Shown here one piece after another: positions 3,497-39,400 of a DNA stretch of 64,000 nucleotides. The stretch covers positions 23,250,001-23,314,000 of the forward strand of contig CAIIXF020000001.1 in the NCBI GenBank assembly GCA_903813345.2. The letters run 5' to 3'. The notes below the pieces were generated by a model. That model was not told the DNA's origin, searched no databases, and saw only the letters and a program-made list of their open reading frames with translations. A program made the translations under genes and the position numbers. The DNA comes from Owenia fusiformis (taxonomy: Eukaryota). Numbering within the stretch: the first letter of the stretch is position 1; each line of letters opens with the position of its first letter.

Positions 3497-6400
3497 TCAT
3501 TTGTTTCTGTTCAGTTTTTCTGGGTTTTCTGAAGCCATAGTAGCAAAGTCTCTAAACACATCGTTAAATGTTTCATCACCTAAAACAAATGAAAAACAAA
3601 TGGTGTCAATATCATTAATATAACATAACTCACACCGGAATAGCCTGATAATGCTAAAGTCAGATACCGTTGTCACAAACTGTTCGCTTCAACTGTTTAA
3701 TCAATTTGTCCTCATTTCATGGGATTTTATCGTCGCTAATTCTATGCATGCTCTTGTGATGATGTTTCATGCAAAATCCCAATTTCGATCAAATTGGGTC
3801 GTGAATCGCCACAATATAACGTCTTCCATATCGTCAATGACAACGGAATCTGAATTTGAGTAATTTAGAAAGACATATGGTATATGGTAATTACAGTGTC
3901 CGTTGTCCCATATCTCAGTTTGATCGTTAAATTAAAGACTTTATTTCGATGGTAGAACATTATTAACTGTACAATGAGTATTAAGACATTTTGATTGATT
4001 GTTGTTCCAAATGAATTTAGTCTAGGTGCTCTATTAAACATACAGTTCATGAAAATCTAATTGAAGCGACAGTTATGTCCGCCATTTGTGACAACGGTAT
4101 CTGACTTTACCGTTGTCAGGCTATTCCGGTGTGATAACTAGAAAATCAAAGAAATATACATCACATGTTATTAAAGAGGTATGCTCTAAAAAGAATATCA
4201 TTTCTACTTTTGCAAGTTCTTTTTGTGTGTTCAGCTTTAGGTTGTGAATATTCCTTTTCTATACGCAATGGCCAATTGATTGTTACATGTTTCAAATCAT
4301 GAAATGAACTGACCAGGGTTCCCAAAGACTCCCTCTGTTTCTCTCATCTCTTCATTCAGCTTGGCAAGTCTCAGTAAAGTCACAATGTCAGCATTGGCAG
4401 ATTCAACTGCTATAGTGAGGGGGTCCTACAATAAGCATCGTATATTGTTAACATAGTGTAGTTATGGATAATCTTTATAAGTTTTTCTTTTCTATTACTC
4501 AGTTTTGAAAACCATTTTTCAAAGTTCATTGCATTTAAGTACAATTTAAAATCATAGATCCATTATTAGCCTTGTCTCTGCCCCCCCCCCCTCTCCCCAA
4601 TTATCTACTTCCACTTGAAGCAAGGCAAAATAGAAAGAAAAAAAAGAAAGAGAATGAATACTATACAGTTTAGGCAAAGATAATTATATTTTAACAAGAT
4701 TCAATCACAGCTATATCACCACTAACCTTTCCCTCCTCATCTACTGCATGCTGGTTGGCACCTCTCTTTAGGAACTGACAAACTTGCCTGCAATCAAAAA
4801 TACACCAAATGCCAAATATAGGTCACGTTCAAAAACACGTACACATACAGGAGACAACATGTAAGAAACAAACATTGTATGTATTGAGTCTGCAACAACC
4901 TGCACTGATCTATCACATTTTAACTGATCTTTGAGAAAATAAATGAGTTACTACATGTATGAATGCCTATACCTAATCCAATTAGCCTCGTATTTGTATA
5001 TCATATTTATTATATGTTTTTTAATCAAATAAGCGCACCTTAGTTGAGTTTGTTCTGACTTACCCCGTATGTCCCATAATGGTTGCATGGTGTAATGCTG
5101 TTCTTCCTTTCTTATCCGTCTTGTCCACTTTAGCACCATTAAGCAACAAGAACTCACAAGCAGCAATTGAGCCAGTCAGAGTGGCTTCCATCAAAGGGTT
5201 CTTCTTGTCATCATCCTCGTTTGACCAGTTAGGGTCAGCACCTTGTGCCAAAGCCTCACGCATCACAGGAAGGTTCCTAGCTTGTGCAGCCTGTAAAAAC
5301 ATCACTTCAATTACAATTTTGTCAGAAGAAATAGGCAAATACAGATTGGGTTGTGTTGTATTGTGTTATGATATTTACATTGTGATAAAATATTTCTGTA
5401 CAGCTTCAAAAATTGAAATACATGTACAGTACATGTATTTTTGAGTTGATTTTTGAGTTGAACTGAATCTCCATTCTCCACTATTATGTTGCAAATGGCA
5501 AATAACTGCATGCATAAAATATAAATGAATTTTGAAAGTAATATTATGCTAACAACTAATGTCTTCTAATAACTAATTCAAATGTCAAATCTTCTAATCA
5601 TGATAATAAAAATGAATCTGTTGTACCTTATAAAGTAACATATCTGGGTGTAGTTTTGTGAAGTCCTCCAGAGATGTTGTGGACTTAGTGTCAGCATCTT
5701 CTGTCTCGCTGGTGGAAGACTCATCCGAGTCCACTAGAACTGCAAATTGAAATAATAAAATAAAAAAAATAGAAACATTATTCGTTGATTAACACCAATT
5801 ACAAGTAAATGTGTGTGCTGTACAATGAGTTCATACTCATTGTTGGTGTCACCCTAGTAAGATTTTCTAAAAATACCAAATCTTTGGATGGTGAGTCGAA
5901 TTATTTGTCTCACATTTTAATGAAATTGAAACTTGGCTGATGTTTTTTAAATGGACAGACAGGCAAATGGAAGTGAGCAACACTGTATATTATGATCTCA
6001 ATGGATGCTATGGGGAAGAGACTTCAAAATTTACCATTATCTGCCATCTCTGCTGATGTATCGAGTCCTGCCCCGAATAGTATGACATCACTCGTGCTGC
6101 CACCTAAACCACTGTCTTGACTCTCACCCTAGAATTTAAAAAGAAATTTGAATCAAGCAGATTTTCTTTCATGATATTGATGTAGACAAAACACTGTTAA
6201 TTAAAAAATATTCAGTCTCCAACACATCAGTCTCCCTATAACTCAACACATATATTAGAAATAGATACGGGGAGGCAAAAGACTCGATGGAAGAAAAGCT
6301 TAAGAGTCTATATAATTAATAACTTAGCTGAAAGTACTCTACTCAAAACTAGCATGACAAACTACTATAAATAAAAGGTAATTTTCAAAAGTATGTCGAA

Positions 6401-9400
6401 TGATCACATTTTCCTACAATGCATTACTAGAGGTAATACCCTTTGAGTAAGTACCATTTGAGTACTTCTATCTACAGATCATACCTGTACCATTTGAGTA
6501 TTATTCTTTGTTCCTTCAGCTACTGCATCCTCTGGTGATAACTGTCTACTGGGCGACCGCCGTTTTCGTTTCACCACACTCCATTTCTTTATCTGATCCT
6601 CGCCATTGTTTTGTATGTTTATTTTGGGTAGTTTCCTCATGAATGATTTATCAACATATTTAGCCCTAATCCATGCTTCTCGGACATTCCTGCAATAGAA
6701 ACATACATCTAAAGAAACTACTCACTATTCAATTTATTACAAATAAACCTGCAAATATTAAACTACAGTAAAACCGATCTTGATCCATCAACGTTTTACA
6801 TATGACTGAAGGAATACACTGGTTTAACAATGGTAATACCTGTCTAATCTGAACGCTACTGGGACCAATCAAATGTTCAGATTTATAGGTGTCCACATTT
6901 CTTGATCATTTTACAACATGGGAGTCAATGTAAGATTACCCATTAGGCATTAATATACAAAATGTCGCCATCTGTCATTTGTTACAGACGCCGAACACAG
7001 AAAACCAACTGCCAAACACTTAACCACCAAACACAGTCCACATATGAAATGATAGTAGTTGGTCAACAAAGAGATTAACACAGATCTAGAAAAAATATTA
7101 ACCACAGAAATTCAAACCAAGCTCTAACTACTCATATTATTTTCACCTCTATAAGCATACAATGATTTCAAGCCACTTAAGGTTATTCTTTCAATTCTTT
7201 TCTCCAACAATAAACTCAACACTAGGTATATAGCAAGTCAATTGGCAGCCTTGAGTCATATTGTTTTTTATGGGCCAGGTCAATAAAATAATCAAAAGAC
7301 AGTATGTCCTCATTCAGGTCAAGGGATGATGGGGACAGAACAAAAATGAAAATAGTCAACATCAAATCATCACACTATTAACCCGCAGCAGTAGTTGGAG
7401 TAATAAACACAACACAATATATATCTTAAAAGATAAATGTGTGATGTAATAAATATTTTGCTTAGAATATAAGACAACAGACAACCGAAGAAGACATTGG
7501 GAAACAGGTATTTGACTAAAAATGACGGTTTCATGTATGAAAAGATTCTGTGGATGTTACACACCGAGGGCAGGGACACTTTTTTCTGGCTACTACACAA
7601 TGGTAAGTTATATCTTCATCATACATCATGCAAGCTGAGGTGGTGTTTTCTTTATTTCTTTCCCAAACAATTCATTACATAAAGTTCATTGTCACTGGTA
7701 TACAACACTTCTGAATTAGAATAATTTACATTATATTTGAATTTGTTTCAAAGTTGATGTAGTTTAAATGCAGATAATAATTTCAGTCAATGTTCCTGCT
7801 TTATTCATGAAGTCAGCAATTAGTTAGCTATTCACTTTTCATACTTTCATTACTGTTTGTTTATTTTCTACTTTTTAATTCAATAGAAGTAAAATTAAGT
7901 TTTTATGAAAGTTGAGGTCATAGCATCTTTACAGGTGAATGATTGATCCCATCTAAAATAAAATCAAGAAAGTGCTCAAAAAATTAATTAAATTAAAAAT
8001 TAATAATTTTTACCATTCCTGAATTGATCAGTTATATAATTTAAATATGACAAAAATAATTCAAAACAAAGTTGAAAATAAGAAAAAGAGTTAATTGAAT
8101 GACCTAAACAAATTTATTAAATGACTTTTTAAAAAGTGACCTGCATATAAACATTTCAGGTCATCCAGTATAATAGCATGCAAATGAACGCTTAACTATA
8201 CACGCTTCTGAATGGCGAACCTGGACTGACCCCAATTCACCTACATCTTTGAGCAAATAAAATACGCTGAGCTTATTTGACAATATCTTAAGCAATTTAT
8301 ACCTTCCCGATCCGGATTGCAAAATTAATGGGATGTTAAATATGTGACCTATTATCAATAATGAGTTTATTTTTAATCTCTTAGGTCTTGGTTTGTAATT
8401 CTATTTTGTAGGTCCTTGGGGGTGGATTTATAATACTAATACTCATAAAATATGTTGGAAAAGATTTTGGACTTCAGACCAAAGGTGAGAATAATTTAGT
8501 CGTAATTGAAACACCAAGCCATCACAGTAATATACCTGGCACTAATATATTTTGAAACTTCCAACTAAAGTTATTTCTTATTCATCATAGTCTCAATAAA
8601 ATAGCAAACAAGGCATAACATGCAAAATATCACCACCTGCCATTTGTTACAAGCACTGAACATTGACCACCAAACATCCACTGCTGACCACCATATACAC
8701 TAAACGCTGAACACCATCCACAAAAAGTTGTAGACTATTACAATATATCCCTACTCGTGGGTGACATAAAAATGCAAATGATACTGAATGTTTTTTTTAT
8801 ATTCTGTTTTCAGAGCACATGATTGTGACATACAGTTCTCTCATCATGTACTCAATTCTAATGGGTGTCTCCCTGGTCCTTCTCTCTGGGGTGTTCCTTG
8901 TAAGTATTCTTATTTATGTACTATATGGATGACACATATGTCTGGGCCCTGGGGCCTTCTTAGCAAGTTTCCAACATTTTCATTGCATGTCTTCATTTTC
9001 TTGGTCCATGTTTTGTTTTTGTCAATTGACATGTTTTGTTCAAGGAAATTGGCATATTCTATCATGTAACAATATACTGACTTGTTAGTAAAGAGTACAC
9101 TTAGTTCAGTATTTTTTCATTGGATGTTACTGTATTTGACCACAGGATAAAAAGGTCTGCCTTCTGCCTTGGCTTGTATTCATGCTGATCCTTGAAGTGT
9201 TTGACATTGGCTCCACAATACTAACAGCACTAAGACACATGCAGTCTGTCAATTGGGTAAGTTCATAATATGATTAAACCCATTGCTTTTTGGAAGAAAC
9301 ATTTGGGGTGTCTACAAAACAAAGACCTAAGACCTACAAAACTAAGACCCCCCACGTTATAAAACTAAGACCCTGTTATAAAACTAAGACCCCCCACGTA

Positions 9401-12400
9401 ATAAAACTAAGACCCTGTTATAAAACTAAGACACCCCACGTTATAAAACTAAGACCCTGTTATAAAACTAAGACCCCCCACGTTATAAAACTAAGACCCT
9501 GTTATAAAACTAAGACCCCCCACATAATAAAACTAAGACCCTGTTATAAAACTAAGACCCCCCACGTTATAAAACTAAGACCCTGTTATAAAACTAAGAC
9601 CCCCCACGTTATAAAACTAAGACCCTGTTATAAAACTAAGACCCCCCACGTTATAAAACTAAGACCCTGTTATAAAACTAAGACCCCCCCCCACGTAATA
9701 AAACTAAGACCCTGTTATAAAACTAAGACCCCCCACGTTATAAAACTAAGACCCTGTTATAAAACTAAGACCCCCCACATTATAAAACTAAGACCCTGTT
9801 ATAAAACTAAGACCCCCCACGTTATAAAACTAAGACCCTGTTATAAAACTAAGACCACCCACGTTATAAAACTAAGACCCCCCACGTTATAAAACTAAGA
9901 CCCTGTTATAAAACTAAGACCCCCCACGTTATAAAACTAAGACCCTGTTATAAAACTAAGACCCCCCCACGTAATAAAACTAAGACCCTGTTATAAAACT
10001 AAGACCCCCCACGTTATAAAACTAAGACCCTGTTATAAAACTAAGACCCCCCACGTTATAAAACTAAGACCCTGTTATAAAACTAAGACCCCCCACATTA
10101 TAAAACTAAGACCCTGTTATAAAACTAAGACCCCCCACGTTATAAAACTAAGACCCTGTTATAAAACTAAGACCCCCCACGTTATAAAACTAAGACCCTG
10201 TTATAAAACTAAGACCCCCAACGTAATAAAACTAAGACCCTTTTATAAAACTAAGACCCCCCACGTTATAAAACTAAGACCCTGTTATAAAACTAAGACC
10301 CCCCACGTAATAAAACTAAGACCCTTTTATAAAACTAAGACCCCCCACGTTATAAAACTAAGACCCTGTTATAAAACTAAGACCCCCCATGTAATAAAAC
10401 TAAGACCCTGTTATAAAACTAAGACCCCCCACGTTATAAAACTAAGACCCTGTTATAAAACTAAGACCCCCCACGTTATAAAACTAAGACCCTGTTATAA
10501 AACTAAGACCCCCCCCATGTAATAAAACTAAGACCCTGTTATAAAACTAAGACCCCCCATGTTACAAAACTAAGACCCTGTTATAAAACTAAGACCCCCC
10601 ACGTTATAAAACTAAGACCCTGTTATAAAACTAAGACCCCCCACGTTATAAAACTAAGACCCTGTTATAAAACTAAGACCCCCCACGATATAAAACTAAG
10701 ACCCTGTTATAAAACTAAGACCCCCCACGTTATAAAACTAAGACCCTGTTATAAAACTAAGACCCCCCACGTAATAAAACTAAGACCCTGTTATAAAACT
10801 AAGACCCCCCACGTTATAAAACTAAGACCCTGTTATAAAACTAAGACCCCCCACGTTATAAAACTAAGACCCTGTTATAAAACTAAGACCCCCCCACGTT
10901 ATAAAACTAAGACCCTGTTATAAAACTAAGACCCCCCACATTATAAAACTAAGACCCTGTTATAAAACTAAGACCCCCCACGTTATAAAACTAAGACCCT
11001 GTTATAAAACTAAGACCCCCCACGTTATAAAACTAAGACCCTGTTATAAGAATCAGTCACCGTGCCTTGCTCTGCTCGCCACAAGGTAGTCTTGCCTCTG
11101 GGCCTTGTGTTCCCTAGTAACATACAGATTCTACAAAAGATAGTCTTGCTTCTGGTCCTTGTGTTCCCTTCTAATATACAGATTCTCCCCACTAACATAA
11201 AGATTCTACAAAAGGTAGTCTTGCTTCTGGTCCTTGTGTTCCCTTCTAATATACAGATTCTCCCCACTAACATAAATATTCTACAAAAGGTAGTCTTGCT
11301 TCTGGTCCTTGTGTTCCCTTCTAATATACAGATTCTCCCCACTAACATAAAGATTCTACACATGGTAGTCTTGTCTCTGGCCCTTGTTTACCCTAGTAAC
11401 ATACACATATGGTAGTCTTGCCATTGACCCTTGTTTTCCCTAGTAACATGGTGGTTCAAGATTTCAGACCCATCTTTCTCACATAGATTGCTGAACTTAT
11501 TTTAGTTAAGAATTCCTAATAGAATTAAGAATTAATAGCTGAAACTGTTCTGTTTGTCCTAGCAAACAATATCCCAATATGCATTTGAAATTCATTTTTG
11601 TCTATATGTGTTGACAGTCTGTGATGTCATCATCAATCATCACAATGGGAATTAGGTGAATTCTATCTGTGACAGTGAGATTATCTATGATGTCACATAG
11701 TAGTTTGATTTCTAAGAAATGTGGCAGAGTTCTATCTATGACAGAGATGCTTTGTGATGTCATCATGAATTATCTCGTTTCCATTGTGATGATTGATGAT
11801 GTCATCAGAGTACTTTGTGATGTCATCGTGAATTACCTCATTTCTATTGTGATGATTGATGATGACATCACAGACTGTCAACAAATAGACAGAAGAAGTT
11901 GAGAAGTTGAACTACAAGTTGGAAAATTGTTTGCTAGGGCAAAACAACTCAGTTTCAGCTAATAATTCTTAATTCTATTAGGAATTCTTAACTAACAAAG
12001 GTTCAGCAATCTGTGCCAGAATGATGGGTCTTAAATCTTGAACTACCATTAAACATCACTTCCAAAACAATACCAGCATAAAATGGAGTATCTCTTTTTA
12101 TGCTCAGCATAAAATGGGACATCACTTTTTATGCCAGCATAAAATGGGATATCACTTTTTATGCCAGCATAAAATGGGACATCACTTTTTATGCCGGGCA
12201 TTAAAAGTGATATCAAAAAAAAATTACTTTTTTTAAAAATCAACAAATCCGGGTATTTGTTACAGTCCATTTTTATATAATCCGCTGTTGTATGTTACTG
12301 GGGAACACAAGGCCCAGAGGCAAGACTACCTTGTGGCGAGCAGAGCAAGGCACGGTGACTGATTCTTATAGCAAGGTCTTAGTTTTATAATGTGGGAGGT

Positions 12401-15400
12401 CTTAGTTTTATAACAGGGTCTTAGTTTTATAACGTGGGGGGTCTTAGTTTTATAACAGGGTCTTAGTTTTATAACATGGGTGGTCTTAGTTTTATAACAG
12501 GGTCTTAGTTTTATAACGTGGGGGGTCTTAGTTTTAAAACGTGGGGGGTCTTAGTTTTATAACAGGGTCTTAGTTTTATAACGTGGGGGGTCTTAGTTTT
12601 ATAACAGGGTCTTAGTTTTATAACGTGGGGGGTCTTAGTTTTATAACAGGGTCTTAGTTTTATAACGTGGGGGGTCTTAGTTTTATAACAGGGTCTTAGT
12701 TTTATTACGTGGGGGGTCTTAGTTTTATAACAGGGTCTTAGTTTTATAACGTGGGGGGTCTTAGTTTTATAACAGGGTCTTAGTTTTATAACGTGGGGGG
12801 TCTTAGTTTTATAACAGGGTCTTAGTTTTATAACGTGGGGGGTCTTAGTTTTATAACAGGGTCTTAGTTTTATAACGTGGGGGGTCTTAGTTTTATAACA
12901 GGGTCTTAGTTTTATAACGTGGGGGGTCTTAGTTTTATAACAGGGTCTTAGTTTTATTACATGGGGGGTCTTAGTTTTATAACAGGGTCTTAGTTTTATA
13001 ACGTGGGGGGTCTTAGTTTTGTAGGTCTTAGGTCTTAGGTCTTTGTTTTGTAGACACCCGAAACATTTGGTGTATTTAAGTCCCTCACAATACTTGTTTC
13101 CTCCCTTGGTTCAGAATTATCATTTAGATTTTGGAAGTTTAATCAAGCAAATATTTATTGATTACAGACGCCAGATGGTTGGGCAATATTTCTAATAATG
13201 TTTTACATCATGCGGACACCTTTAAATGTAAGTAAACTTATTTTATTAGTGATAAGTAAGTGTATGAATATTTTGAGATACTTGATGGAAATTGAAAGGA
13301 AGGTAATTTTGATATTTTAAGTATTGTACAACTGAGAACTGGTCTACTCGTTTATTGGTCTATACATGTATTTATTGAGATAGTGTAATCTTCAATTGCT
13401 CATCCTCACATGTTTTGATGCAGTTCGTACATTTCCATAATACTGCACATCTGACATTTCCATAATACTGCACATCTGACATTTCTATAATACTGCATAT
13501 CTGACATTTCCATAATACTGCACATCTGACATTTCCATAATACTGCACATCCGACATTTCCATAATACTGCACATCTGACATTTTCATAATACTGCACAT
13601 CCGACATTTCCATAATACTGCACATCTGACATTTTCATAATACTGCACATCCGACATTTCCATAATACTGCACATCTGACATTTCCATAATACTGCACAT
13701 CTGACATTTCCATAATACTGCACATCCGACATTTCCATAATACTGCACATCTGACATTTCCATAATACTGCACATCTGACATTTCCATAATACTGCACAT
13801 CCGACATTTCCATAATACTGCACATCTGACATTTCTATAATACTGCATATCTGACATTTCCATAATACTGCACATCTGACATTTCCATAATACTGCACAT
13901 CCGACATTTCCATAATACTGCACATCTGACATTTTCATAATACTGCACATCCGACATTTCCATAATACTGCACATCTGACATTTTCATAATACTGCACAT
14001 CCGACATTTCCATAATACTGCACATCTGACATTTCCATAATACTGCACATCTGACATTTCCATAATACTGCACATCCGACATTTCCATAATACTGCACAT
14101 CTGACATTTCCATAATACTGCACATCTGACATTTCCATAATACTGCACATCCGACATTTCCATAATACTGCACATCTGACATTTCCATAATACTGCACAC
14201 CTGATATGAAATTAATTCTATATTTCCTTTCATGATTTTAGGCATACTGTATCATGTGTGTCTGGAGCCAATACTGTGAACTGAAGGCTGGAAGGGGCAC
14301 TTTTCTTTACCATCAGAAACGTAAGGTAGGTTCACGGAATACATATACTGCTAAATACATTGAATGTTTGCTTCCAGTTGGCAGAATTCATTGAAAAAAG
14401 ATTTAAAAGTCAAAACGACAGCAAAAACTTCATCATCCTACCAAATAGACATTTTTACTTTTATTCCAAAGATACATCTTGAAAATCAGCTAATAAAAAA
14501 ATCAGATATGATTTTGTTATTGTAGAGACATAATCGCAATATGGTGAGACAAATCCAGCCTATAAGCCAACCAGATTCCTCTCAGCACACAAGTCTACCT
14601 ACGGTGTCAGCATATTGCGAGGCAACCAGAGTGTCATACAATGAACATGGTGAGGTTATACTTGCCCCACCACCATATAAACTTGACCCACCATCATATT
14701 CACAGATAAACCTTAACAATGGTGTCAATGATGACAGTACTGATAGACACAAAGACAATACACCTTTAGTGACATCATCAAACGTGATGTCAAATACAGT
14801 ATCAATTGCGATGTCATTTACATCTTTAAATCTGATGTCAACTACACCATCAAACATGTAACTCAATGAATCTAAATGGTAGCCAGCAATGGGAGATAAA
14901 TCACCAACAACCCTGATGACAATGCTACATCTCCATGACAACCCGGCAGATCTGCTTTACAAACAGCACCATGACAACACCTACATGACTCTCCAGAACA
15001 TGCCATTGTATGTTTTATACTAAGATAGACATTTAGATATTAGATACATACCAAATCTGTACTTAAAAAATCAATGACAAATCTCAAACATCATCTGGAT
15101 AATGTATACCATGTAGCTATATCAAACAGCTACAGTGTGGTTGCCCTGGTAACATAAAACGATACATATAGTTGGTTACCTGTTACAATGTGATGTTGCC
15201 CTGGTGATAGTAGATGACTCGGGAACATCTGCCTCGTATATTCTGTTAATAATAGTGTTCCCCAATTCTGCCATCACCTTCAGTAATTCTGGTTCCCATG
15301 AGTCTAATGTCACAGAGCGCACCTTTGACATATGAACACCAAAGCTCCTGAAAATATCACAAACATGTATTAATATGCATATGGCGTATACACAATCTTA

Positions 15401-18400
15401 AATATTTTGAAATAAACTATATGTAACGCTCATATTCATTAGGCCATTAAATGGAAAAGGTCACAAATCAATTTGTTTTAGTAGACTACAGTATTCTTTT
15501 TTAATTTTTAAAATGTCTATTTTGTGAAAAAGCTCAGGCACCCACTGTAATATTTAACAAAATAGAATGTGTGTAGATATTATTTGGCCCATCCTTCACA
15601 CGCTCTATTTAATTGTTTGATGAGATTATCTTTAAGGTATATAAAGGTATAAAGGTATAATTCTGACGAGGGTAGACTAAAAAATGTATAATTTAACTGC
15701 CACAGTGTTCAATTAAGAAAGCAATCCAGTTAAGCCTCCAATATATTTCAATACTTTACCTATGAATTCCAGAGCATTCTATACATAATGTGATCCCTAA
15801 GTTAATACTGGCCCATCTAGGTTCTGTAGAGCCACAATCACAGCATTGGTTGTTCCCAGGTATAGACAGTAGCTGTTTCATTCTAGAAAACAACAAAGAA
15901 ATATATATTGTACATGATGTTAGCGTACACAATCACAGCACTAGTTGTTGCCAGGAATAGACGTTACTGTTTCATTCTAGAAAACAATAGACATATTTAA
16001 TGTTCAGGATGTTAGCATACGCTTTGCTATAAATTTTAACAAGGCATTAACATGACAAAATGTCACAACCTTGTATTACAAATGGTTACAAAATGTTACA
16101 AGTCCACTTAATTGTTACCATGGTAACATTTCAAGTCAATGTGACTATGCATTCTTAAGTTACAGTATGTAAGAAATCTGAGAAGTGTTTCAAGACAAAT
16201 AATCTGTTTCTGAATTTGAAAAGTAATGGCTTTTCAAAAGTCAAATTCACAAAATACTCTTTCTATTAAGAAAACAGCAATTCGACAGAGTAACAAATCC
16301 CAACAAACAAAATATTTTGTGACCATTTTGAATTATTTGATTCAAGAATAAAAACTGAAACAATATTTGTGATATTATATGAAATACTGAGTATAAATTA
16401 TGAAACAACACTTTGAAGAGATCTCAAAACTATGCACAGAGGTGATCATGCAGCAGGATTGAACTTTATTATGCAAGGCATAGTGTACTATTTCTACCAA
16501 CCTGGTTTGTTTAGCTGTAACAGGGTGAGGTGCTGTTGTACTTGGGTTGTTCTCCCCTGAGGATGATGTACTGGTGCTCTGTGTAGGAGATTTGCTTGAG
16601 ACAGTAGTAGCTTCAGTGTTGCTTGGCCCATTTGTATTCACCTAAAAATAAATACAGTATGCATATAAACTGTCAAGTGAAACACCTTTGAAATGGAGTC
16701 CCAAGATACATTGACTTAATGTTAAATAAATCTCTGTAAGAGGAATATCTCCCTAGTTGAACATTTTAAGATGTACCAAAGTTACTCACTTCGAGAGCCA
16801 TGTTAGATTTTGAAACTTATGGCTCTCAAAGGGAGAAGTGGACAGCTCATCGATTGTGACCTTTGAAATCGAATTAAGTCGATCAGCGGCCTACTTTTGT
16901 TCTCTAACTATGCTATACATCATTATCATCCTTCTGTGCAAGTATTGGAGTGCTGAGGTATTTCCTTTTCGATCAAGACTTGTAATTGTTAGTCGAGTGA
17001 ATGTTTTTACTGCCGAATTCCAATATGGCGTTTTCTGCTCGGACATTTTCGTACATTTCCGGAGGTTGTCCGAACCTAACTAATTCTCAAAATTAATTTC
17101 GTTCGTTGCGTATCTCGCTCCTAGCAAACCGCCATATTGGAAATAGGTCTAAAAAACATTCACTCGATGAACAATTTTCAAGTCTTGATCGAAAAAGAAG
17201 TATTTCAGCGCTCTAATACTTACACGGATTGATGATACTGATGTAAGACACAGTTAGAGACCAAAAGTAAGCCGCTGATCGACTTAATTCAATTTCAAAG
17301 GTCACAATCATTGAGCTGTCCAAATGCTCCGTGGGAAAGCTATTATATCAAAATCCAAATAACTTTCGCAGGAAGTAATACCAAAGGTGTTCCACTTATA
17401 CAGGTTTCACTTTAAATCATATTCCTTGTTGGTCTGCACTGTACCAAGAAAGTACATGTATAAACATCTAAAAGAGCCAAGAAATTTTGCTTTTATGTGC
17501 CATGTGAGACAATTTTGAGCATACTGTTATTATATCAAGTTTCTTTAATAAATTCATCAGTAGAAACTATTTCATGATTTCATCTACGTAATTTCTCACA
17601 GAGGGAAATCTTCATTGGTCTGAAAATGCACATGTTTTAGAGATTCAATGAATATGAAAGCACCATGAGCCCAGTGCACCTACCCGCTCAAGTTCTTTAG
17701 TTGGTAAACTCCTGCTTCTATCTCTGAATGCTTGACTAACCCCAGTCTGTATGGCAGTGATCCAGGCAGAACACTCCTCGGCAGAGTCTGCTTGTAGCAT
17801 GTGACTCCTAGAACAATCTCAAATATTAAAATGCAATCATATCACCCAGGGCAAAAGGGGTAAAAATGCAATAATAGATTTATATAGTTATAGGATATCC
17901 TAATTTTGTGATTCGGTTGCAAAAAAAATATATGCCTGATTCTCTCCTAAAAATCTTCAGCCTTTCTTTTCAAATCGATCCAAAACTTCTATAAATGACT
18001 TAAAATCTGGCATTTAGAGACTAAGCTTGATATATTCTCATATTTTCTTCATACAAGTCCTCTCAGAGTCCTCTCATTTGAAACAATTATCTTAAAGCAA
18101 AGAAATAATTTCCTACAGCTGGTTCAAGAATGGAATGTTTACCTGGTTGGAGAGACAACTTCAAAACAGAACCTCCTGTCAAGCTCTACATGTGGCTTTA
18201 CAAGGCACAATCGGAGATCTTCCTCCATAATGGTCAGGTTATCCTTGGATCTCTTACGATACACCAGCTGATCCTCATGGATCATGAAGTACCTTCTGCA
18301 ATGTACAGATGCATTATGGGTATAAGAGAAAATACTTGATTTTTGATAGGTTAGAAGGTAGTTAATAATTTAGTATGAGTGCGCTTTGAAAATACATAGG

Positions 18401-30400: not shown

Positions 30401-33400
30401 CAATCCCTACATCAAACAATAACCATGATGCTGACAATATCATGAGAAATGAGGTTATCACAGAACAACCAGTAATCAACCCTCGCCGAGTAAATGGAAA
30501 AGATATTCTCGAAATTGACACAAATAAAGCTGAAACAATTGAGAGAGAGAATGGACAAGTACAGAAGAAAACAAGTTTTAGAATAAATGGCTTCAAAGTA
30601 ATTGTTAAAACATCAGATTCAGACACTGTAAAAGTATTAAAACAAGATCAAAATAACAGACAACAAATTGTTGCATCTCTAGATTCATCAAATGATGAGA
30701 AAAATGAACATTATGAGAAAGCAAAGCAGATAATATCAAATCACCTAATCAGAAATAACATCACTGTAAAAGGAACTACAAATGTAGAAATTAAAACTAG
30801 ACCCAAGGCACCAATTGTAAACAAACAAGATCAAAATAACAGACAACAAATTGTTGCATCTCTAGATTCATTGAATGATGAGAAAAATGAACATTATGAG
30901 AAAGCTAAACAGATAATATCAAATCACCTAATCAGAAATAATGTCACTGTAAAAGGAACAACAAATGTAGAAATTAAAACTAGACCCAAGGCACCAATTG
31001 TAAACAAACCAAAAGTTGCAATAAAAGTTGGGATTAAAGTGACACCAAGACGGAAAACACCAAGAACAAATGTAAACTCTTATGTAAAATACAGAAATAA
31101 AGCTGAAAATAGATATGCCGATGAGCCTAAACTTAGAATAACAACAGCTGCAACAAGAACAACAATGATAACAACAACACAGAAAAAGTCAAATACGAAT
31201 ATTAACTCTTACGCACAATACAGAAACAAGGAAAGATATAGATATGCCAATAAGCCCAATAACAAAATAACAACAGCACCAAAAATAACAACAAGGGCAA
31301 CAACAACACCAAGAATGACAACACAAATGAAAACAACACCAAGGACGCTGGTAACACCAAAAACAATTGCTAATGACAGAGTTCACAGTGGAGACAATGA
31401 TGATATAGAGTTTATTGAGGAAAATATTCAAACCACAGTACCTCATGAGAAAACAAACAATGATAATATAAACAATGCTGAAGACCACAATGAGGGCCGA
31501 AAGCATAAAGGTGATGTTGGTTCTACAACAGCAGAAGATGACTATGATGCAGAACCTGGTGAGTCAGAGGAATATTCTGGGGCAGGTTTTCTATGACAAT
31601 AGGATGCTAGAGCAATGAAACACTTCACACAAGACATTCTTCTTTTTTGATTTTCCAATTTTTAATTTTTTTTAATCTAACATTTCTCTCCTTTTTTCTG
31701 AGTTGAGTCTTCTTAAAAATATATAAGATGACATCATTTATTTGAAAATCTAATTCATTCATTTTATAGATTCATTTTATTTTATTCATGTTTGTGCTTG
31801 TGTACATTTGACAGTATGAGAAGTGGCTGGCCATTTATGGGTTTGAAGAAATTCCTTCAGAGATATGATCATAAAAAAATCATGGAATTTTTAATCATTG
31901 GTTGTTTTGTCTGCATATTTAGATGCCGCAATAACTTCCAACAGATTCACATATGTACCGAGTCTCTTTTCTATAACCTGTTCATATATGTCAATGTGTT
32001 AAATGTGAAAATGTAATCTTTTCTTATATAATGCTTATACATAGAACATGATGTACAAAGTAAAATACTTTTATATGAGTAGACCTAGATTCATAATTTG
32101 ATTAACTGTAATATAATCATAATTGTACATTTTGATTAACTCAAATGAAAATGAGGATGAACAATGTATTATATATGTTTTGATGTGTAAAAATCAAAAA
32201 AAATTGTCGCTAAGAAGACGGACAGTTGCATTTCTTAAAAGGGACCAATGTTTTAGATGGTTCTTTGTGGTTGAAAATGCATGAATGATTAAATGACCCC
32301 TTATTCCTGGCTTAAAACACTATTAACATCATCTAGAAATTAGGAATGTAAATCTTAAAGGAATAAAATTTAATAGTATCAATAAAATACTTTTTTAGTT
32401 TTATATATACAAGAAGGGCTTGCATTTAAATGGCAGCAAAGAACAGTGTAGAATTGTAGTTGATCTTTCCAAAAATATTTTTAGAAAATTGGCATGACAA
32501 AGAATGTTGAGACCAAAAAGACCGTAAAAATATGATAATCTCAACACATTAATAGCCTTTGTTGCACATTTGGCATTTGGCACATTTGAACTCTCGTTCA
32601 TTGACTTAAATTTCTTTTGATAGAGCTTTTCATCTGGTTTGCAAATGTATTTCGCGGTAATACCATTTTGTTCAGGTGGTCTCAAATCCTTAGCAGGGGT
32701 ACCGATTATAAGGTCTATCAGTGCAATCCTAGCTACCTACCTAGCAGACATGTATCTGCTTTACAAATATTTATCCACGGTCATATTCCCCTGTGTTCGA
32801 AAAAATCAAAGTGTGATATTTATCCAAGGTCAGGAAGTTCTAGCGCCAGCTGAGAAGTTAATTCATGTTTTGATTGCTCTGTCAAGAAAAACATACGGCT
32901 TCATCTATGGAACATCTGAAAACCTCAATATCCTGTGCTCCATACACCTGATACAGTGTTTCCTGATTTAATTAATCCATACCAAAATTATGTCAGCTTT
33001 ATATGTACTTAAGTCAGTTGTCTTAGCTATAAGCAATAAGCTGTCTCATTATAAAAACTGTATCAAAACTGTATAAAATCTATGTCATCAAAATAGATGT
33101 CAGCAAAATTGAAGTCATCAAAATCAATGTCATCAAAATCAATGTAAACTAAATCGATGTCACCAAAAATCAATGTCAGCAAAATCAATGTGAGCTGAAT
33201 CAATGTCATCAAGTAAATGCAGTTGTATCAAATTAAGTACAATGGGATGGAGTTTTTATATAATATAGGAATGGATGTATAACAAACAGTATAGTAAGAC
33301 AAATACTTCCTGTAGTACACCATCCTGAAAAACAGACAATTCATTTTCTGATGTTTCAAAAAGCCTAGGGTGATGCAAGTAGGCTGGCAGGGTTAATAGA

Positions 33401-36400: not shown

Positions 36401-39400
36401 CAGTATGTTCGCATGCATGTTTTCTTAAGATTTTATCATAACATTTGATTCAGAAACAATGTATTATCTTCCATTTAGGACTTGAATCTGGATAGAGAAC
36501 ATTTGTTTGAACTGAGTTCAATAAACTCTATGAATTTTTCTTTATTTTTGGATAATGGTTGTTTGACTGCGAGCGGAACATGACAATTGGGATGGTTTCT
36601 TAGTGCTTTAACTAGATAGCAGCAAGATGGAGGCAAAACAAATCCCATGAAAAATCAGACAAATTGCTTGAAATCAAAATGGCTACCATACATGTATTGT
36701 CAAAGATGATGTAGCATTCTTGCATGTATTTACATACTCATAGGCCTATAAAATATCAACAAAATCATTCTTTCCACCATTTTTCATAAAGCATCTTAAG
36801 CAAGTTGTCAAAAGAAAATATACCCCGCTTCAATGTATCTTCAATGTATCTATTTTTTCAGATATAGCAAAAAAAGTAAAATAACACATAAAAATGGCTG
36901 CCAATTTTCAAAATGGCTCCCTACTTGTCAAAGTGTCATAAAAAAGTATACCATAAGTATTCACTTATCAACAAAATTGCTTCACTTTTTTCGAGATAAG
37001 CAAAAATCATAAAATAAAGTGTAACAGCCACCATTGGTTGGTCTCCATGTTTTTTTAAAAATTAAGATATTGAATTAAAAATGAATTCCAAATGTTACTG
37101 ATTCTTTTTTTGGTGTTGCTATGTTTCTTTTTATTAATTTCTGTTTATATTTCTCTTGAGCAATTGTGTTATTTTGGGTTATCCTTTTGATTCAGAAATT
37201 GTGTTAATGATCATTGTTTCCTTTGCAGGAGGGAGATCAACAGTATTATAACCAGGTACAAAACAAACCTTGAGTCCTTATTCAAGGATAGACCTAGAAA
37301 ACTAGAATTTCAGTAATGCTATCAGGTCACAAACCTTGAAAATTGAACAAGACAATTTCGGAAACGGACACCTCTCCTGATTGTAATCTCCATAACATGA
37401 ACAGGCACATCAGCCCTTTCATTTCAGGTTTTGAGATTTGAGATAAAGCACCCTTTGAAGGAATATCAAAATGCATTTTTGACAACATTATCTATGTTTT
37501 CAGTAATTATGTTTCCAGATTATATTTCCTTCTTATGAAATATCAATCTTTGTCAAACCAAAGAAAAAAGGGATGTACTTGATCCTTGTACTATTACCCC
37601 AAAGAACTGTCAGAGCATTGACCTTAAACTTATTAAAGAAACTTGGAGCAACTGTTAAGTGGCAATATAACAGAGGCATTTACAAGTTGGTAAGTAAGTC
37701 TATACCATCTCATATGCTACCACTTTCTCTCTGGGGTCAAGTTCAATTAGAAGAGGATGAGTTAGCAATAACTAGGTTGAGCTACATACTCCATAGCAAA
37801 CAAACTACCTAAAATACATTGGGGTTTCAGTTTCACAAAATTCCTGTATATGTTTTTACTGCCATCTTTACGATGAGTAGATTCTATTTGCTTCATAAAG
37901 GTCTCTAGTAGAGAGATCACTCTATGATATATCATGGTTCACCAACACTTGATACTGCTGCTTTTAAATTCTAAACCTAAATGCACATGGCATTTACACT
38001 TGTAATATTGTGTTTCTGTCTTTACGTAAAAAATAAAAAATATTTTGGCAGCCTTTTATGTATATAGCATTGGACAGTGATAATGTAAAGTAAAATGTGA
38101 AGAATGTATGTATACAAGTACATTTAATATCATCTCCAAACAGGACCAAGCATTTACATAATAATATCAGTCATCACCTGTTATAATTGGAAAATTGTCA
38201 CAAAAGTGTAACAATTTATTAGACATGTGACCACCAATGCAAACAACCAAAAAAACCATTACAGTAACAATATGTCACCACTTCTTGGTGGTGACATAAA
38301 ATGTGGTGACATAAAAGTTACATGGTTACAAAATTCACAACAATGAGAGTCTCCATAACAACGTGGCTTACCACTGTTTAATGGTAGGGAATGGATTGGG
38401 ATCTACATTGGGCTGTCAAAAGTAAGGGAGCTAGGAAAATGTCTTACCTTTTGTTGTACTAGTGTATGTCTCTCTTCCATCTCTTTACGGTCAACAGCAG
38501 CTTTAGCACTCAGTTCTTCCACCTGGGGAGTAGAGAGAGCAATGAGAGAGCGATGGAGAAAATAATAAAATAACAACTCCACAAAGTAGTTATATGGTCA
38601 AAATATTTTTTTCTAAAATCATTATGCTTTAACTTCCAGCCATTCCTTATTAACAATATTTTATGTTTGAAATAGCACAAATGTGGAATAATTTTGAGGG
38701 ATAATATGAATTATTAATTCTCAGATGATTAGCCACCATCAAGTATGCCATCTTTAATCACTGGACAAGTATAAATCAAACCATAGGATAGTTTCTATGA
38801 GCAAATGCCATTTGGTATAGACATTGAATGTCAAATGCAGTCTGCCGTCAAAAAAAGATTGAGACCCCAACATGTTGTTAAAACATCTGTGGTGGTGACA
38901 TTAAAATGGCAAATCTACAGAGAAGCAGATCCCAACTGAATTTTAATAAGTTGCCTATGGATCATTCATTTTGAACTTTATGCCTGAAATAACAAGGCAG
39001 TGGAGGTATCCGAATAAAAACTACACCAATGACATACCAAAATGTATAAAGACATTAACAGGAAGTTCAGTGGGATAATCATACCCCATATACAGTAGTT
39101 GACTATTAAAACTTCACCTAATTACCTGATTGGCCAGTTGTTTCATGTAGGGTTCAAGGTCATTGAAGAGGTCATTGCCTTGGTGAAAGTAGGCATTCTG
39201 GGCATGCATGTATGCCAGCATCTGAAATATTGAAGTTTAAGTCAACATTGTCTTGAAGAAAAGTAAGTCTGGCATTTACTTTGGTGATTAGAATATATGA
39301 AATTAGTTGAGAGTATGCATCCAAGGTCTTGTAAATATTTGCTTAGTCGGCTCCTACGGCTGAATGTAGTTTCAGATGTGCAAAGCCCATTAGGAAGACT

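Follow-up and report, generated by a model that had tools for sequence, protein, structure and literature searches.

Host gene and nested exons

The window analyzed here is a 64,000-nucleotide stretch of Owenia fusiformis DNA (assembly GCA_903813345.2, contig CAIIXF020000001.1, positions 23,250,001 to 23,314,000 of the forward strand), and all coordinates below are positions within it. On the minus strand, Pfam domains follow one another in the order PH, ArfGap and Ank_2, with weak E-values for PH (8e-4 and 1.8e-3) and values of 2.5e-17 and 5.1e-15 for ArfGap and 4e-12 for Ank_2. The best natural PDB matches are ACAP2 (1.1e-25) and ACAP1 (6.9e-18). As judged by the encoded PH, C4 zinc-finger ArfGAP and ankyrin domains, this is an ACAP-like PH-ArfGAP-ANK gene, closest to ACAP1/2. 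One of its introns occupies 6690–15179 (CT..AC as read on the plus strand). The host exon 3' of the intron (6484–6689, minus strand) encodes the end of the ArfGAP domain and a linker, and is covered in RNA by a contig joint at 6127/6484 and by pieces spanning 6484–6692 in runs X1, X2 and X9. The host exon 5' of the intron (15180–15347, minus strand) encodes the middle of the ArfGAP domain (Pfam ArfGap E 5e-15; best PDB match ACAP1, 6.9e-18); its upper border was taken from the sequence (ttttcag|GAGC, minus strand), not from RNA. The host RNA contig X1 ends at 6692, and 8 loose letters of it match 15183–15190.

Antisense to the host, and entirely inside this ArfGAP-region intron, lies the coding sequence of a second gene; the nesting claimed in the preliminary description is thus confirmed by the intron borders, the Pfam and PDB matches, and contig X1. 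Ordinary nested genes of animals are likewise complete genes on the opposite strand of a long host intron, and nothing sets the present case apart. It is most simply regarded as a common gene-in-intron arrangement with no functional tie; the nesting in itself gives no hint of shared function, and a functional link to ACAP is unsupported.

Seven plus-strand exons, joined from the window sequence, yield 831 nt, that is, 276 codons and a TAA stop, with canonical AG|exon|GT sequences at all 12 internal splice borders. An in-frame TGA is located 9 nt upstream of the ATG, which has an A at position -3. The open 276-aa frame and the canonical borders described earlier therefore stand, with the splicing as drawn being predicted. 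A phmmer search of 1.84 billion representatives with the annotated part of the protein returned 12 relatives at E ≤ 1e-3 (best 2.9e-14), including proteins from Ostrea, Lingula, Capitella, Lymnaea and Lottia. A family HMM was built solely from these 12 relatives, leaving the Owenia protein out. The seven-exon product reaches 157.2 bits (E 2.5e-50, Z=1) with this HMM, and none of 20 shuffled controls exceeds 4.4 bits; as judged from its sequence, the 276-codon frame is far beyond chance.

Exon 1 (7522–7602; 27 codons, GT donor) provides the start codon, a predicted cytosolic, Cys-rich N-terminal stretch and the start of TM1; it aligns with the conserved N-terminus of the family, reaches 8.1 bits on its own with the family HMM and is matched in tblastn by three of the 12 homologues. 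The remaining internal exons all have AG/GT borders. Exon 2 (8412–8484; 73 nt) encodes the remainder of TM1 and the first loop, and since none of the 12 homologues matches it in tblastn, it is supported by the alignment, by its presence in the NCBI model and by the continuous reading frame. Exon 3 (8814–8899; 86 nt) encodes TM2 and is matched by six homologues, a seventh match extending into the intron. Exon 4 (9146–9256; 111 nt, phase 0-0) carries a DKK..LLPW motif and TM3, reaches 14.4 bits with the family HMM and is matched by ten of 12 homologues, the two misses being models that do not contain this segment. Exon 5 (13168–13227; 60 nt) encodes a loop and the first half of TM4, with matches from three of 12. 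Exon 6 (14242–14325; 84 nt) completes TM4 and carries the Nx[17 protein letters not shown] signature; all 12 homologues match this exon (best E 1e-6). Of the 27 columns most conserved in the family, 11 fall within it, and it agrees with ten of these. Exon 7 (14526–14861; AG acceptor, 111 codons and TAA) encodes a low-complexity tail, putatively cytosolic, in which PPPY (aa 213) and PPSYSQI (aa 220) occur, and is 100% identical to the C-terminus of an existing NCBI model, P0001.

This partial 212-aa model already comprises exons 2, 3, 5, 6 and 7. The earlier designation of the gene as hidden is accordingly right only in part, exons 1 and 4 being the two that the NCBI model lacks; all seven lie within stop-to-stop ORFs of at least 40 aa. 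The NCBI model reaches 92.5 bits against the family HMM, and exons 1 and 4 align with conserved family segments, so that both are backed by the homologues covering them (157 versus 92 bits). What is new is a corrected seven-exon model of an already half-annotated gene of a known protein family; the practical gain is that the exon with the start codon and the exon with PW and TM3 are restored.

Membrane segments and family relationships

Four hydrophobic stretches are evident in the protein, with best 19-aa Kyte-Doolittle windows at 21–39 (1.86), 61–79 (2.25), 84–102 (2.14) and 124–142 (1.49), the fourth being the weakest. They align with helices 12–39, 48–77, 84–111 and 118–149 predicted by AlphaFold2 for the Lingula relative, a model (pLDDT 79.6, pTM 0.70) in which the tail is disordered and the helices, four in all, are long. 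This agrees with the four TM segments proposed before. The motifs listed at that stage are all present: N-terminal cysteines (Cys5, Cys10 and Cys12), LLPWL at aa 86–90, CVWSQY...GRG at aa 143–156, and the two proline-rich tail motifs, PPPY and PPSY. The PW pair within LLPWL (P88-W89) is encoded by exon 4, and among 28 filled alignment rows its P is present in 100% and its W in 86%.

Pfam DUF4728 (PF15860), one of two families suggested in the preliminary description, proved to be the right one, as it matches 31 of 32 relatives (E ≤ 0.1) and exceeds the Pfam cut-off in eight of the ten nearest. The Owenia protein was searched in pieces, of which exon 4 alone gives 20.9 bits (E 6e-4, profile 23–51) and P0001 14.5 bits (profile 36–90), relative to a gathering score of 26.7. 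The protein is thus no orphan but a member of the pasiflora/DUF4728 tetraspan family, known from Deligiannaki et al. 2015 (PMC4582180). In the tree it groups with molluscan proteins and one from a brachiopod in a 100/98-supported clade of 9 rows; its terminal branch measures 1.45 changes per column (median 0.3), and it shares 25–35% identity with its relatives. Of 27 highly conserved columns, 21 retain the consensus residue, among them Q147, Y148, E150 and G154-R155-G156. We conclude that the protein is a fast-evolving pasiflora/DUF4728 tetraspan of a subclade common to molluscs and the brachiopod, and consider it highly probable that the nested gene is real and the family assignment correct.

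Among characterized proteins, Drosophila Pasiflora1 (CG7713) offers the closest description for comparison. Both are small tetraspan proteins without a signal peptide and with PW at the start of TM3; PW and VxSQY are motifs given for the Pasiflora1 orthologues, and VxSQYQ at the TM4/C-terminal boundary is called absolutely conserved among them (PMC4582180). V.SQY is found at this boundary in both proteins, followed by EL..GRG in all relatives found here. The Owenia protein differs in having VWSQYC (aa 144–149), which departs from VxSQYQ at one of six positions, C standing in for the last Q, and in its length of 276 aa with a 111-aa tail and two PY motifs, compared with 169 aa for Pasiflora1 (PMC4582180). 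Among the other 31 rows, 97% keep the final Q; the Lingula relative, with VYTQYT, is likewise off the consensus. Because VWSQYC deviates from VxSQYQ, the protein is filed on sequence grounds in the wider family and the Pasiflora1-like clade; we do not class it as an orthologue of Pasiflora1. Published Pasiflora1 orthologues come from molluscs, echinoderms and hemichordates (PMC4582180), the same spread as the matches here, among which there were no Drosophila sequences.

A further Drosophila protein, Ikebana/CG15098, has four TM segments and is reported to contain both Mtp and DUF4728 domains, bridging the pasiflora and LAPTM families; its termini are predicted to be intracellular, and the published work on it concerns Flower-dependent cell competition (10.1101/2024.04.13.589362). 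With Pasiflora1 it shares the PW motif only (PMC4582180). Compared by Ikebana's description alone, the Owenia protein is likewise a four-TM protein of DUF4728 type.

The long branch also suggests another reading, in which the locus holds a decaying or functionless paralogue with an open frame, lost constraint and perhaps no expression. Loss of the conserved Q of VxSQYQ would fit, as would the repeat arrays that fill introns 4 and 5, and the lack of a canonical poly(A) signal ahead of the host exon (no AATAAA or ATTAAA between the nested stop codon and 15180, the first being at 15411). Decay is nevertheless improbable in view of 12 intact splice borders, an unbroken frame of 276 codons, the 21 of 27 conserved positions retained, two PY motifs still in register, and, anecdotally, variation that is seen at nearby intronic positions but in the exons only once, as a synonymous change.

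PY motifs and the LAPTM comparison

The two tail motifs belong to a pattern: L/PPxY motifs occur twice at aligned places in nine of nine clade members, and the second is followed by xx-hydrophobic in eight of nine. None of the 16 evaluated arthropod, echinoderm and hemichordate relatives has a PY motif, so PY docking is not family-wide. PY motifs are also conserved in amphioxus relatives of the pasiflora/DUF4728 family.

LAPTM4A, LAPTM4B and LAPTM5 resemble the Owenia protein in having four TM segments and L/PPxY motifs in the C-terminal tail; their termini are cytosolic, and their sorting is directed by PY motifs to which NEDD4 WW domains bind (PMC3214061, PMC2064599). Conservation of the motifs in nine of nine clade members makes NEDD4-type docking a fair inference, and by analogy with the LAPTMs we give such a mechanism an even chance of applying to the Owenia protein.

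The resemblance raises the question of whether the protein is itself an endolysosomal tetraspan of LAPTM4/5 type, acting as a NEDD4 adaptor in lysosomal sorting and perhaps coupled to the host ACAP. The four TM segments and the PY motifs are in line with this, as is the R.G(S/T) that comes after the N-terminal cysteines; the Ptychodera relative is labeled 'LAPTM5-like' at NCBI, and a preprint extends the pasiflora family to LAPTM4A/B (10.1101/2024.04.13.589362). In a language-model atlas, the LAPTM4B and LAPTM5 clusters reach 0.85 and the DUF4728 cluster 0.87, all below the bar of 0.9 and hence leads only. Pfam Mtp (PF03821), the second family suggested initially, did not hold up: searched piece by piece, none of the seven exons matches at E ≤ 10, nor does P0001, and two of 32 relatives match below the cut-off, the better one weakly over TM4 and tail (E 0.0063, 16.6 bits versus 25.2). 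In contrast, all but one of the 32 relatives match DUF4728, the family marked by the VxSQYQEL..GRG signature. Drosophila Pasiflora1/2, the sole characterized relatives, are plasma-membrane septate-junction proteins (PMC4582180), and for this reason the endolysosomal location is a guess; nesting in ACAP is no evidence of shared function. Taken together, this makes a LAPTM-type protein unlikely. We know of no septate-junction role for the family outside Drosophila.

Based on these observations, we favor, with a probability of roughly 0.6 for the explanation as a whole (gene, family and PY-based docking), a genuine seven-exon plus-strand O. fusiformis gene nested in an intron of the minus-strand ACAP-like gene. 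Both termini of its product would be cytosolic, as published for Pasiflora1/2 (PMC4582180). We suggest that: (i) the presumably disordered C-terminal tail may dock WW domains of NEDD4-family ubiquitin ligases through its two L/PPxY motifs; (ii) the second motif, usually PPxYxx-hydrophobic, may double as a tyrosine-based sorting signal; and (iii) the protein's own trafficking between plasma membrane or junctions and endosomes, and its turnover, could be ligase-controlled, as with LAPTM4/5. Counting against the explanation are the long branch, the 25–35% identity, the Q to C replacement, the missing AATAAA/ATTAAA, a public model without exons 1 and 4, the DUF4728 scores of the Owenia pieces below the gathering score, and the lack of PY motifs in the 16 relatives evaluated outside the clade among arthropods, echinoderms and hemichordates. 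A spiralian clade and amphioxus relatives with conserved PY motifs, next to arthropod relatives found here without them, hint that part of a junction-protein family is under the control of NEDD4-type ligases, as the LAPTMs are; we found no paper combining 'pasiflora' and 'Nedd4'.

Exon 4 in gene models and relatives

The segment encoded by exon 4 (aa 81–117) is absent from three gene models, two of them from annelids (Owenia P0001 and Capitella P0005) and one from an oyster (Ostrea edulis 'isoform X2', P0002), and skipping it preserves the frame. The main product might accordingly be a shorter three-TM form, as in the NCBI model, with exon 4 optional or unused. We regard this as improbable, since exon 4 holds the family-defining PW motif and TM3, and the segment is retained in ten of 12 relatives, including proteins from Logan contigs of 922–2975 nt that are taken to be transcripts. 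The two relatives without it are the sole two of ten that miss Pfam DUF4728, and the exon-4-less Owenia model gives a poor Atlas structure model (pTM 0.28). Gene predictors often miss short exons.

A variant of the same idea, also doubtful, is that exon 4 is a conserved cassette exon, the skipping of which would produce a three-pass isoform with its PY tail across the membrane, beyond the reach of cytosolic NEDD4 ligases. If true, splicing would act as a topology switch in a family of junction/trafficking tetraspans, linking pasiflora to LAPTM-style ligase docking.

Within the contigs of two studies, the sole exonic variant of the nested gene is 9175 T>G, which is synonymous. Intronic positions near the nested exons vary, unlike the coding sequence save for this one change, an observation that is anecdotal.

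Reading frame and homologues of the nested gene

We joined and translated the seven plus-strand intervals proposed in the preliminary description (7522–7602, 8412–8484, 8814–8899, 9146–9256, 13168–13227, 14242–14325 and 14526–14861), and the predicted ORF is borne out: the 831 nt encode 276 residues with no internal stop, and the splice borders are canonical, with AG before exons 2–7 and GT after exons 1–6. Exon 1 supplies a start ATG with A at −3 and an in-frame TGA 9 nt upstream, and the frame closes with TAA at 14859–14861. All of the motifs claimed for the protein are present: Cys5, Cys10 and Cys12; LLPWL at residues 86–90; CVWSQY...GRG at 143–156; PPPY at 213; and PPSY at 220. The four proposed TM segments coincide with four hydrophobic windows in a Kyte-Doolittle scan (21–39, 61–79, 84–102 and 124–142), of which the last is weaker (1.49). 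A retrocopy origin is ruled out by the six introns. Neither AATAAA nor ATTAAA occurs from the stop codon to the ArfGAP exon of the host gene (15180–15347), and the first AATAAA lies at 15411; the 3′UTR may therefore extend antisense over this host exon.

The gene had been described as hidden, which holds only in part. With exon 7 as query, a single protein was retrieved at 100% identity, a 212-aa “unnamed protein product, partial” from Owenia fusiformis (P0001), which comprises exons 2, 3, 5, 6 and 7; the locus is thus already annotated for five of its seven exons, and it is the start exon and exon 4 that are missing from the public model. When exon 7 or P0001 was used as the query of a word-based search for homologues, nothing besides P0001 was returned. 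In an exhaustive phmmer search of 1.84 billion representatives with P0001, 13 proteins reached E≤1e-3, namely P0001 itself and 12 relatives (best 2.9e-14). Among the relatives are uncharacterised proteins of Ostrea edulis, Lingula anatina, Capitella teleta, Lymnaea stagnalis and Lottia gigantea. Identity between the Owenia protein and any relative is 25–35%, and this homology excludes a chance ORF.

Exons 1 and 4 are backed by their alignment to conserved segments of the 12 relatives. Exon 1 falls on the conserved N-terminus, in which Cys-rich sequence precedes R.G(S/T) and Y(T/S)(L/M), and exon 4 on the D(K/R)..L.LPW segment together with helix 3. Against an HMM made solely from the 12 relatives, the seven-exon protein reaches 157.2 bits, compared with 92.5 for the NCBI model and at most 4.4 for twenty shuffles. 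When the relatives were compared with the window by tblastn, exon 6 was matched by all 12 and exon 4 by 10, the other two being those that do not have this segment; exon 3 was matched by six, exons 1, 5 and 7 by three each, and exon 2 by none. A wider family alignment has 27 columns with conservation of 80% or more across its 31 rows other than Owenia, and the Owenia protein keeps the consensus residue in 21 of these. The agreement of alignment, HMM score, tblastn and conserved columns argues, at the level of sequence, that the seven-exon model surpasses the public one. The same tblastn search gave 82 scattered weak matches outside the nested exons; the two that were inspected (37173–37334 and 31173–31357) contain stops or Cys-rich low-complexity sequence, and no second family member was found in the 64-kb window.

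The exon-4 segment, which is frame-preserving and encodes TM3, is precisely absent from models of three species: P0001, the Ostrea edulis “isoform X2” (P0002) and a Capitella teleta model (P0005). This shared absence may come from gene prediction, which would have made the same error on a short segment each time, or it may point to a cassette exon that is conserved and keeps the frame.

Relationship to the pasiflora and LAPTM families

The preliminary description had likened the protein to the LAPTMs and had named the Pfam models Mtp and DUF4728 for comparison. DUF4728 (PF15860) scores above the Pfam cut-off in eight of the ten nearest relatives and, in the wider alignment of 32 members, is found in 31 at E≤0.1, with DUF7027 in 22; Mtp, the LAPTM model, appears in only two of the 32, at E 0.0063 or worse. 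The Owenia sequence was compared as pieces and not as the full spliced protein: exon 4 alone reaches 20.9 bits and P0001 14.5 against DUF4728 (cut-off 26.7), and neither piece matches Mtp. The wider set came from a profile search that yielded at least 24 relatives, adding amphioxus, a hemichordate, sea stars and arthropods to our set; its candidates were scored in part, and several query members were not returned. Matches in the language-model Atlas all fall below 0.9 and serve as leads only.

DUF4728 led us, via a preprint on Drosophila Ikebana/CG15098, to the pasiflora family of tetraspan proteins defined by Deligiannaki et al. 2015 (PMC4582180). There, Pasiflora1 orthologues are reported in arthropods, molluscs, echinoderms and hemichordates, with PW at the start of TM3 and VxSQYQ at the TM4/C-terminal boundary in common, and Pasiflora1 and 2 are described as core septate junction components at the plasma membrane. 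In our widened set, V.SQYQ followed by EL..GRG occurs in nearly all members. The Owenia protein has the PW, but carries VWSQYC in place of VxSQYQ, with C for the final Q that 97% of the remaining 31 family rows keep.

A maximum-likelihood tree was calculated from 32 rows, omitting P0001, four near-duplicates and two fragments. The Owenia protein falls in a clade of nine (support 100/98) with three molluscs, Lingula and four other sequences, and is sister to all other members of this clade; its terminal branch measures 1.45 changes per column, where the median is 0.3, and rows with branches of such length are difficult to position. Capitella belongs to a different clade, so spiralians have at least two paralogues of the family.

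The structural model, a stand-in for the Owenia protein, is of the Lingula relative (217 aa, complete) and was computed from 31 aligned rows (pLDDT 79.6, pTM 0.70); it shows four long helices (12–39, 48–77, 84–111 and 118–149) and a disordered tail. A Foldseek search of the PDB with this model gave no match at E≤0.001, and the best Z in a wide VIA-align search was 12.5, below the background of about 13 for helical bundles. The VIA-align list contains four-helix bundles from both soluble and membrane proteins (MS4A/Fc-epsilon-RI beta, Kei1, uroplakin, a claudin design, TARP, CD20 and CD9). These matches are generic, and the model does not allow a family to be named from structure.

The case for the nested gene is weakened by the long branch, the Q-to-C change, the low identity, the lack of a canonical poly(A) signal ahead of the host exon and a public model without exons 1 and 4. 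We conclude that a known family gains here a new and divergent member, whose nested position is nothing unusual. The preliminary observation is upheld, and its interpretation is supported in part.

The PY-motif tail

The nested protein combines a conserved four-helix membrane core bearing the pasiflora signature with a disordered tail containing two conserved PY motifs. Two L/PPxY motifs occupy aligned positions in all nine clade members, and in eight of them the second continues with xx-hydrophobic, which is how a tyrosine-based sorting signal reads. In the half of the tree that contains this clade, each of the 15 rows carries one or more PY motifs; in the remaining half (arthropods, echinoderms and a hemichordate), none was found in the 16 rows evaluated. 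The PY motifs of LAPTM4a, LAPTM4b and LAPTM5 are reported to bind NEDD4 WW domains and to control lysosomal sorting (PMC3214061, PMC2064599), and a literature search pairing “pasiflora” with “Nedd4” found no paper. The value of the locus is twofold: a corrected gene model, and the link that the PY motifs draw between pasiflora-type and LAPTM-type tetraspans.

By the published topology of Pasiflora1 and 2, both termini would be cytosolic. The PY motifs could dock NEDD4-family ligases, and perhaps AP adaptors too, and such docking would govern whether the protein resides at the plasma membrane and junctions or in endosomes. The protein may be junctional, as Pasiflora1 is, or endolysosomal, as the LAPTMs are.

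Host gene, run contigs and intronic repeats

On the minus strand, Pfam matches of the host ORF pieces run from PH through ArfGap (two exons, E 2.5e-17 and 5.1e-15) to ankyrin repeats. Among natural proteins of solved structure, the best match is ACAP1 for the ArfGAP exon (6.9e-18) and ACAP2 for the ankyrin exon (1.1e-25). Matching sequence is present in 12 public sequencing runs from three studies, none recorded as RNA and with shares of at most 0.13. Contigs of four runs (X1, X5, X9 and X2), representing all three studies, were aligned to 4200–9270 only, which spans three of the six nested junctions; the remainder of the nested gene was left out for its long tandem arrays. The contigs behave as RNA, since they bridge five host junctions, from 4424 to 6484, with CT..AC ends. 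One host contig stops at 6692, and its eight loose letters match 15183–15190. Read together with the sequence, this contig end places the host intron at 6690–15179, exactly the borders originally proposed, and the intron encloses the entire nested coding sequence. Nesting within ACAP is an ordinary arrangement that requires no functional explanation.

Within the aligned region, no contig among the joints listed bridges 7602/8412, 8484/8814 or 8899/9146; exon 1 is without cover, and the contig pieces that run across the ends of exons 2, 3 and 4 are all unspliced and of low depth (2–11). This result is informative neither for nor against splicing of the nested gene. Contigs from two studies (X5 and X2) carry T>G at 9175, which alters the third base of the Leu90 codon (exon 4) and is synonymous; every other difference listed for this part of the nested gene (7728–9004) is intronic.

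Repeats lie in several of the nested introns; an Rfam search of 6000–16000 gave no match. Intron 4 contains a 42-bp minisatellite as two oppositely oriented arrays (9322–11049 and 12398–13036), with arms of up to 501 nt at 98% complementarity, separated by about 1.3 kb in which 75-, 63- and 30-bp tandem repeats occur; the inverted structure looks like a foldback-type insertion. Intron 5 consists mostly of a 25-bp unit repeated 31 times with 95% matches (13429–14204). Finally, a short element is present in two diverged copies, at 8616–8726 in intron 2 and at 6951–7008 (76% over 58 nt), with a summed contig depth of up to ~40,000 and many chimeric joints and loose ends, and probably represents a repeat family that is dispersed and transcribed at a high level.
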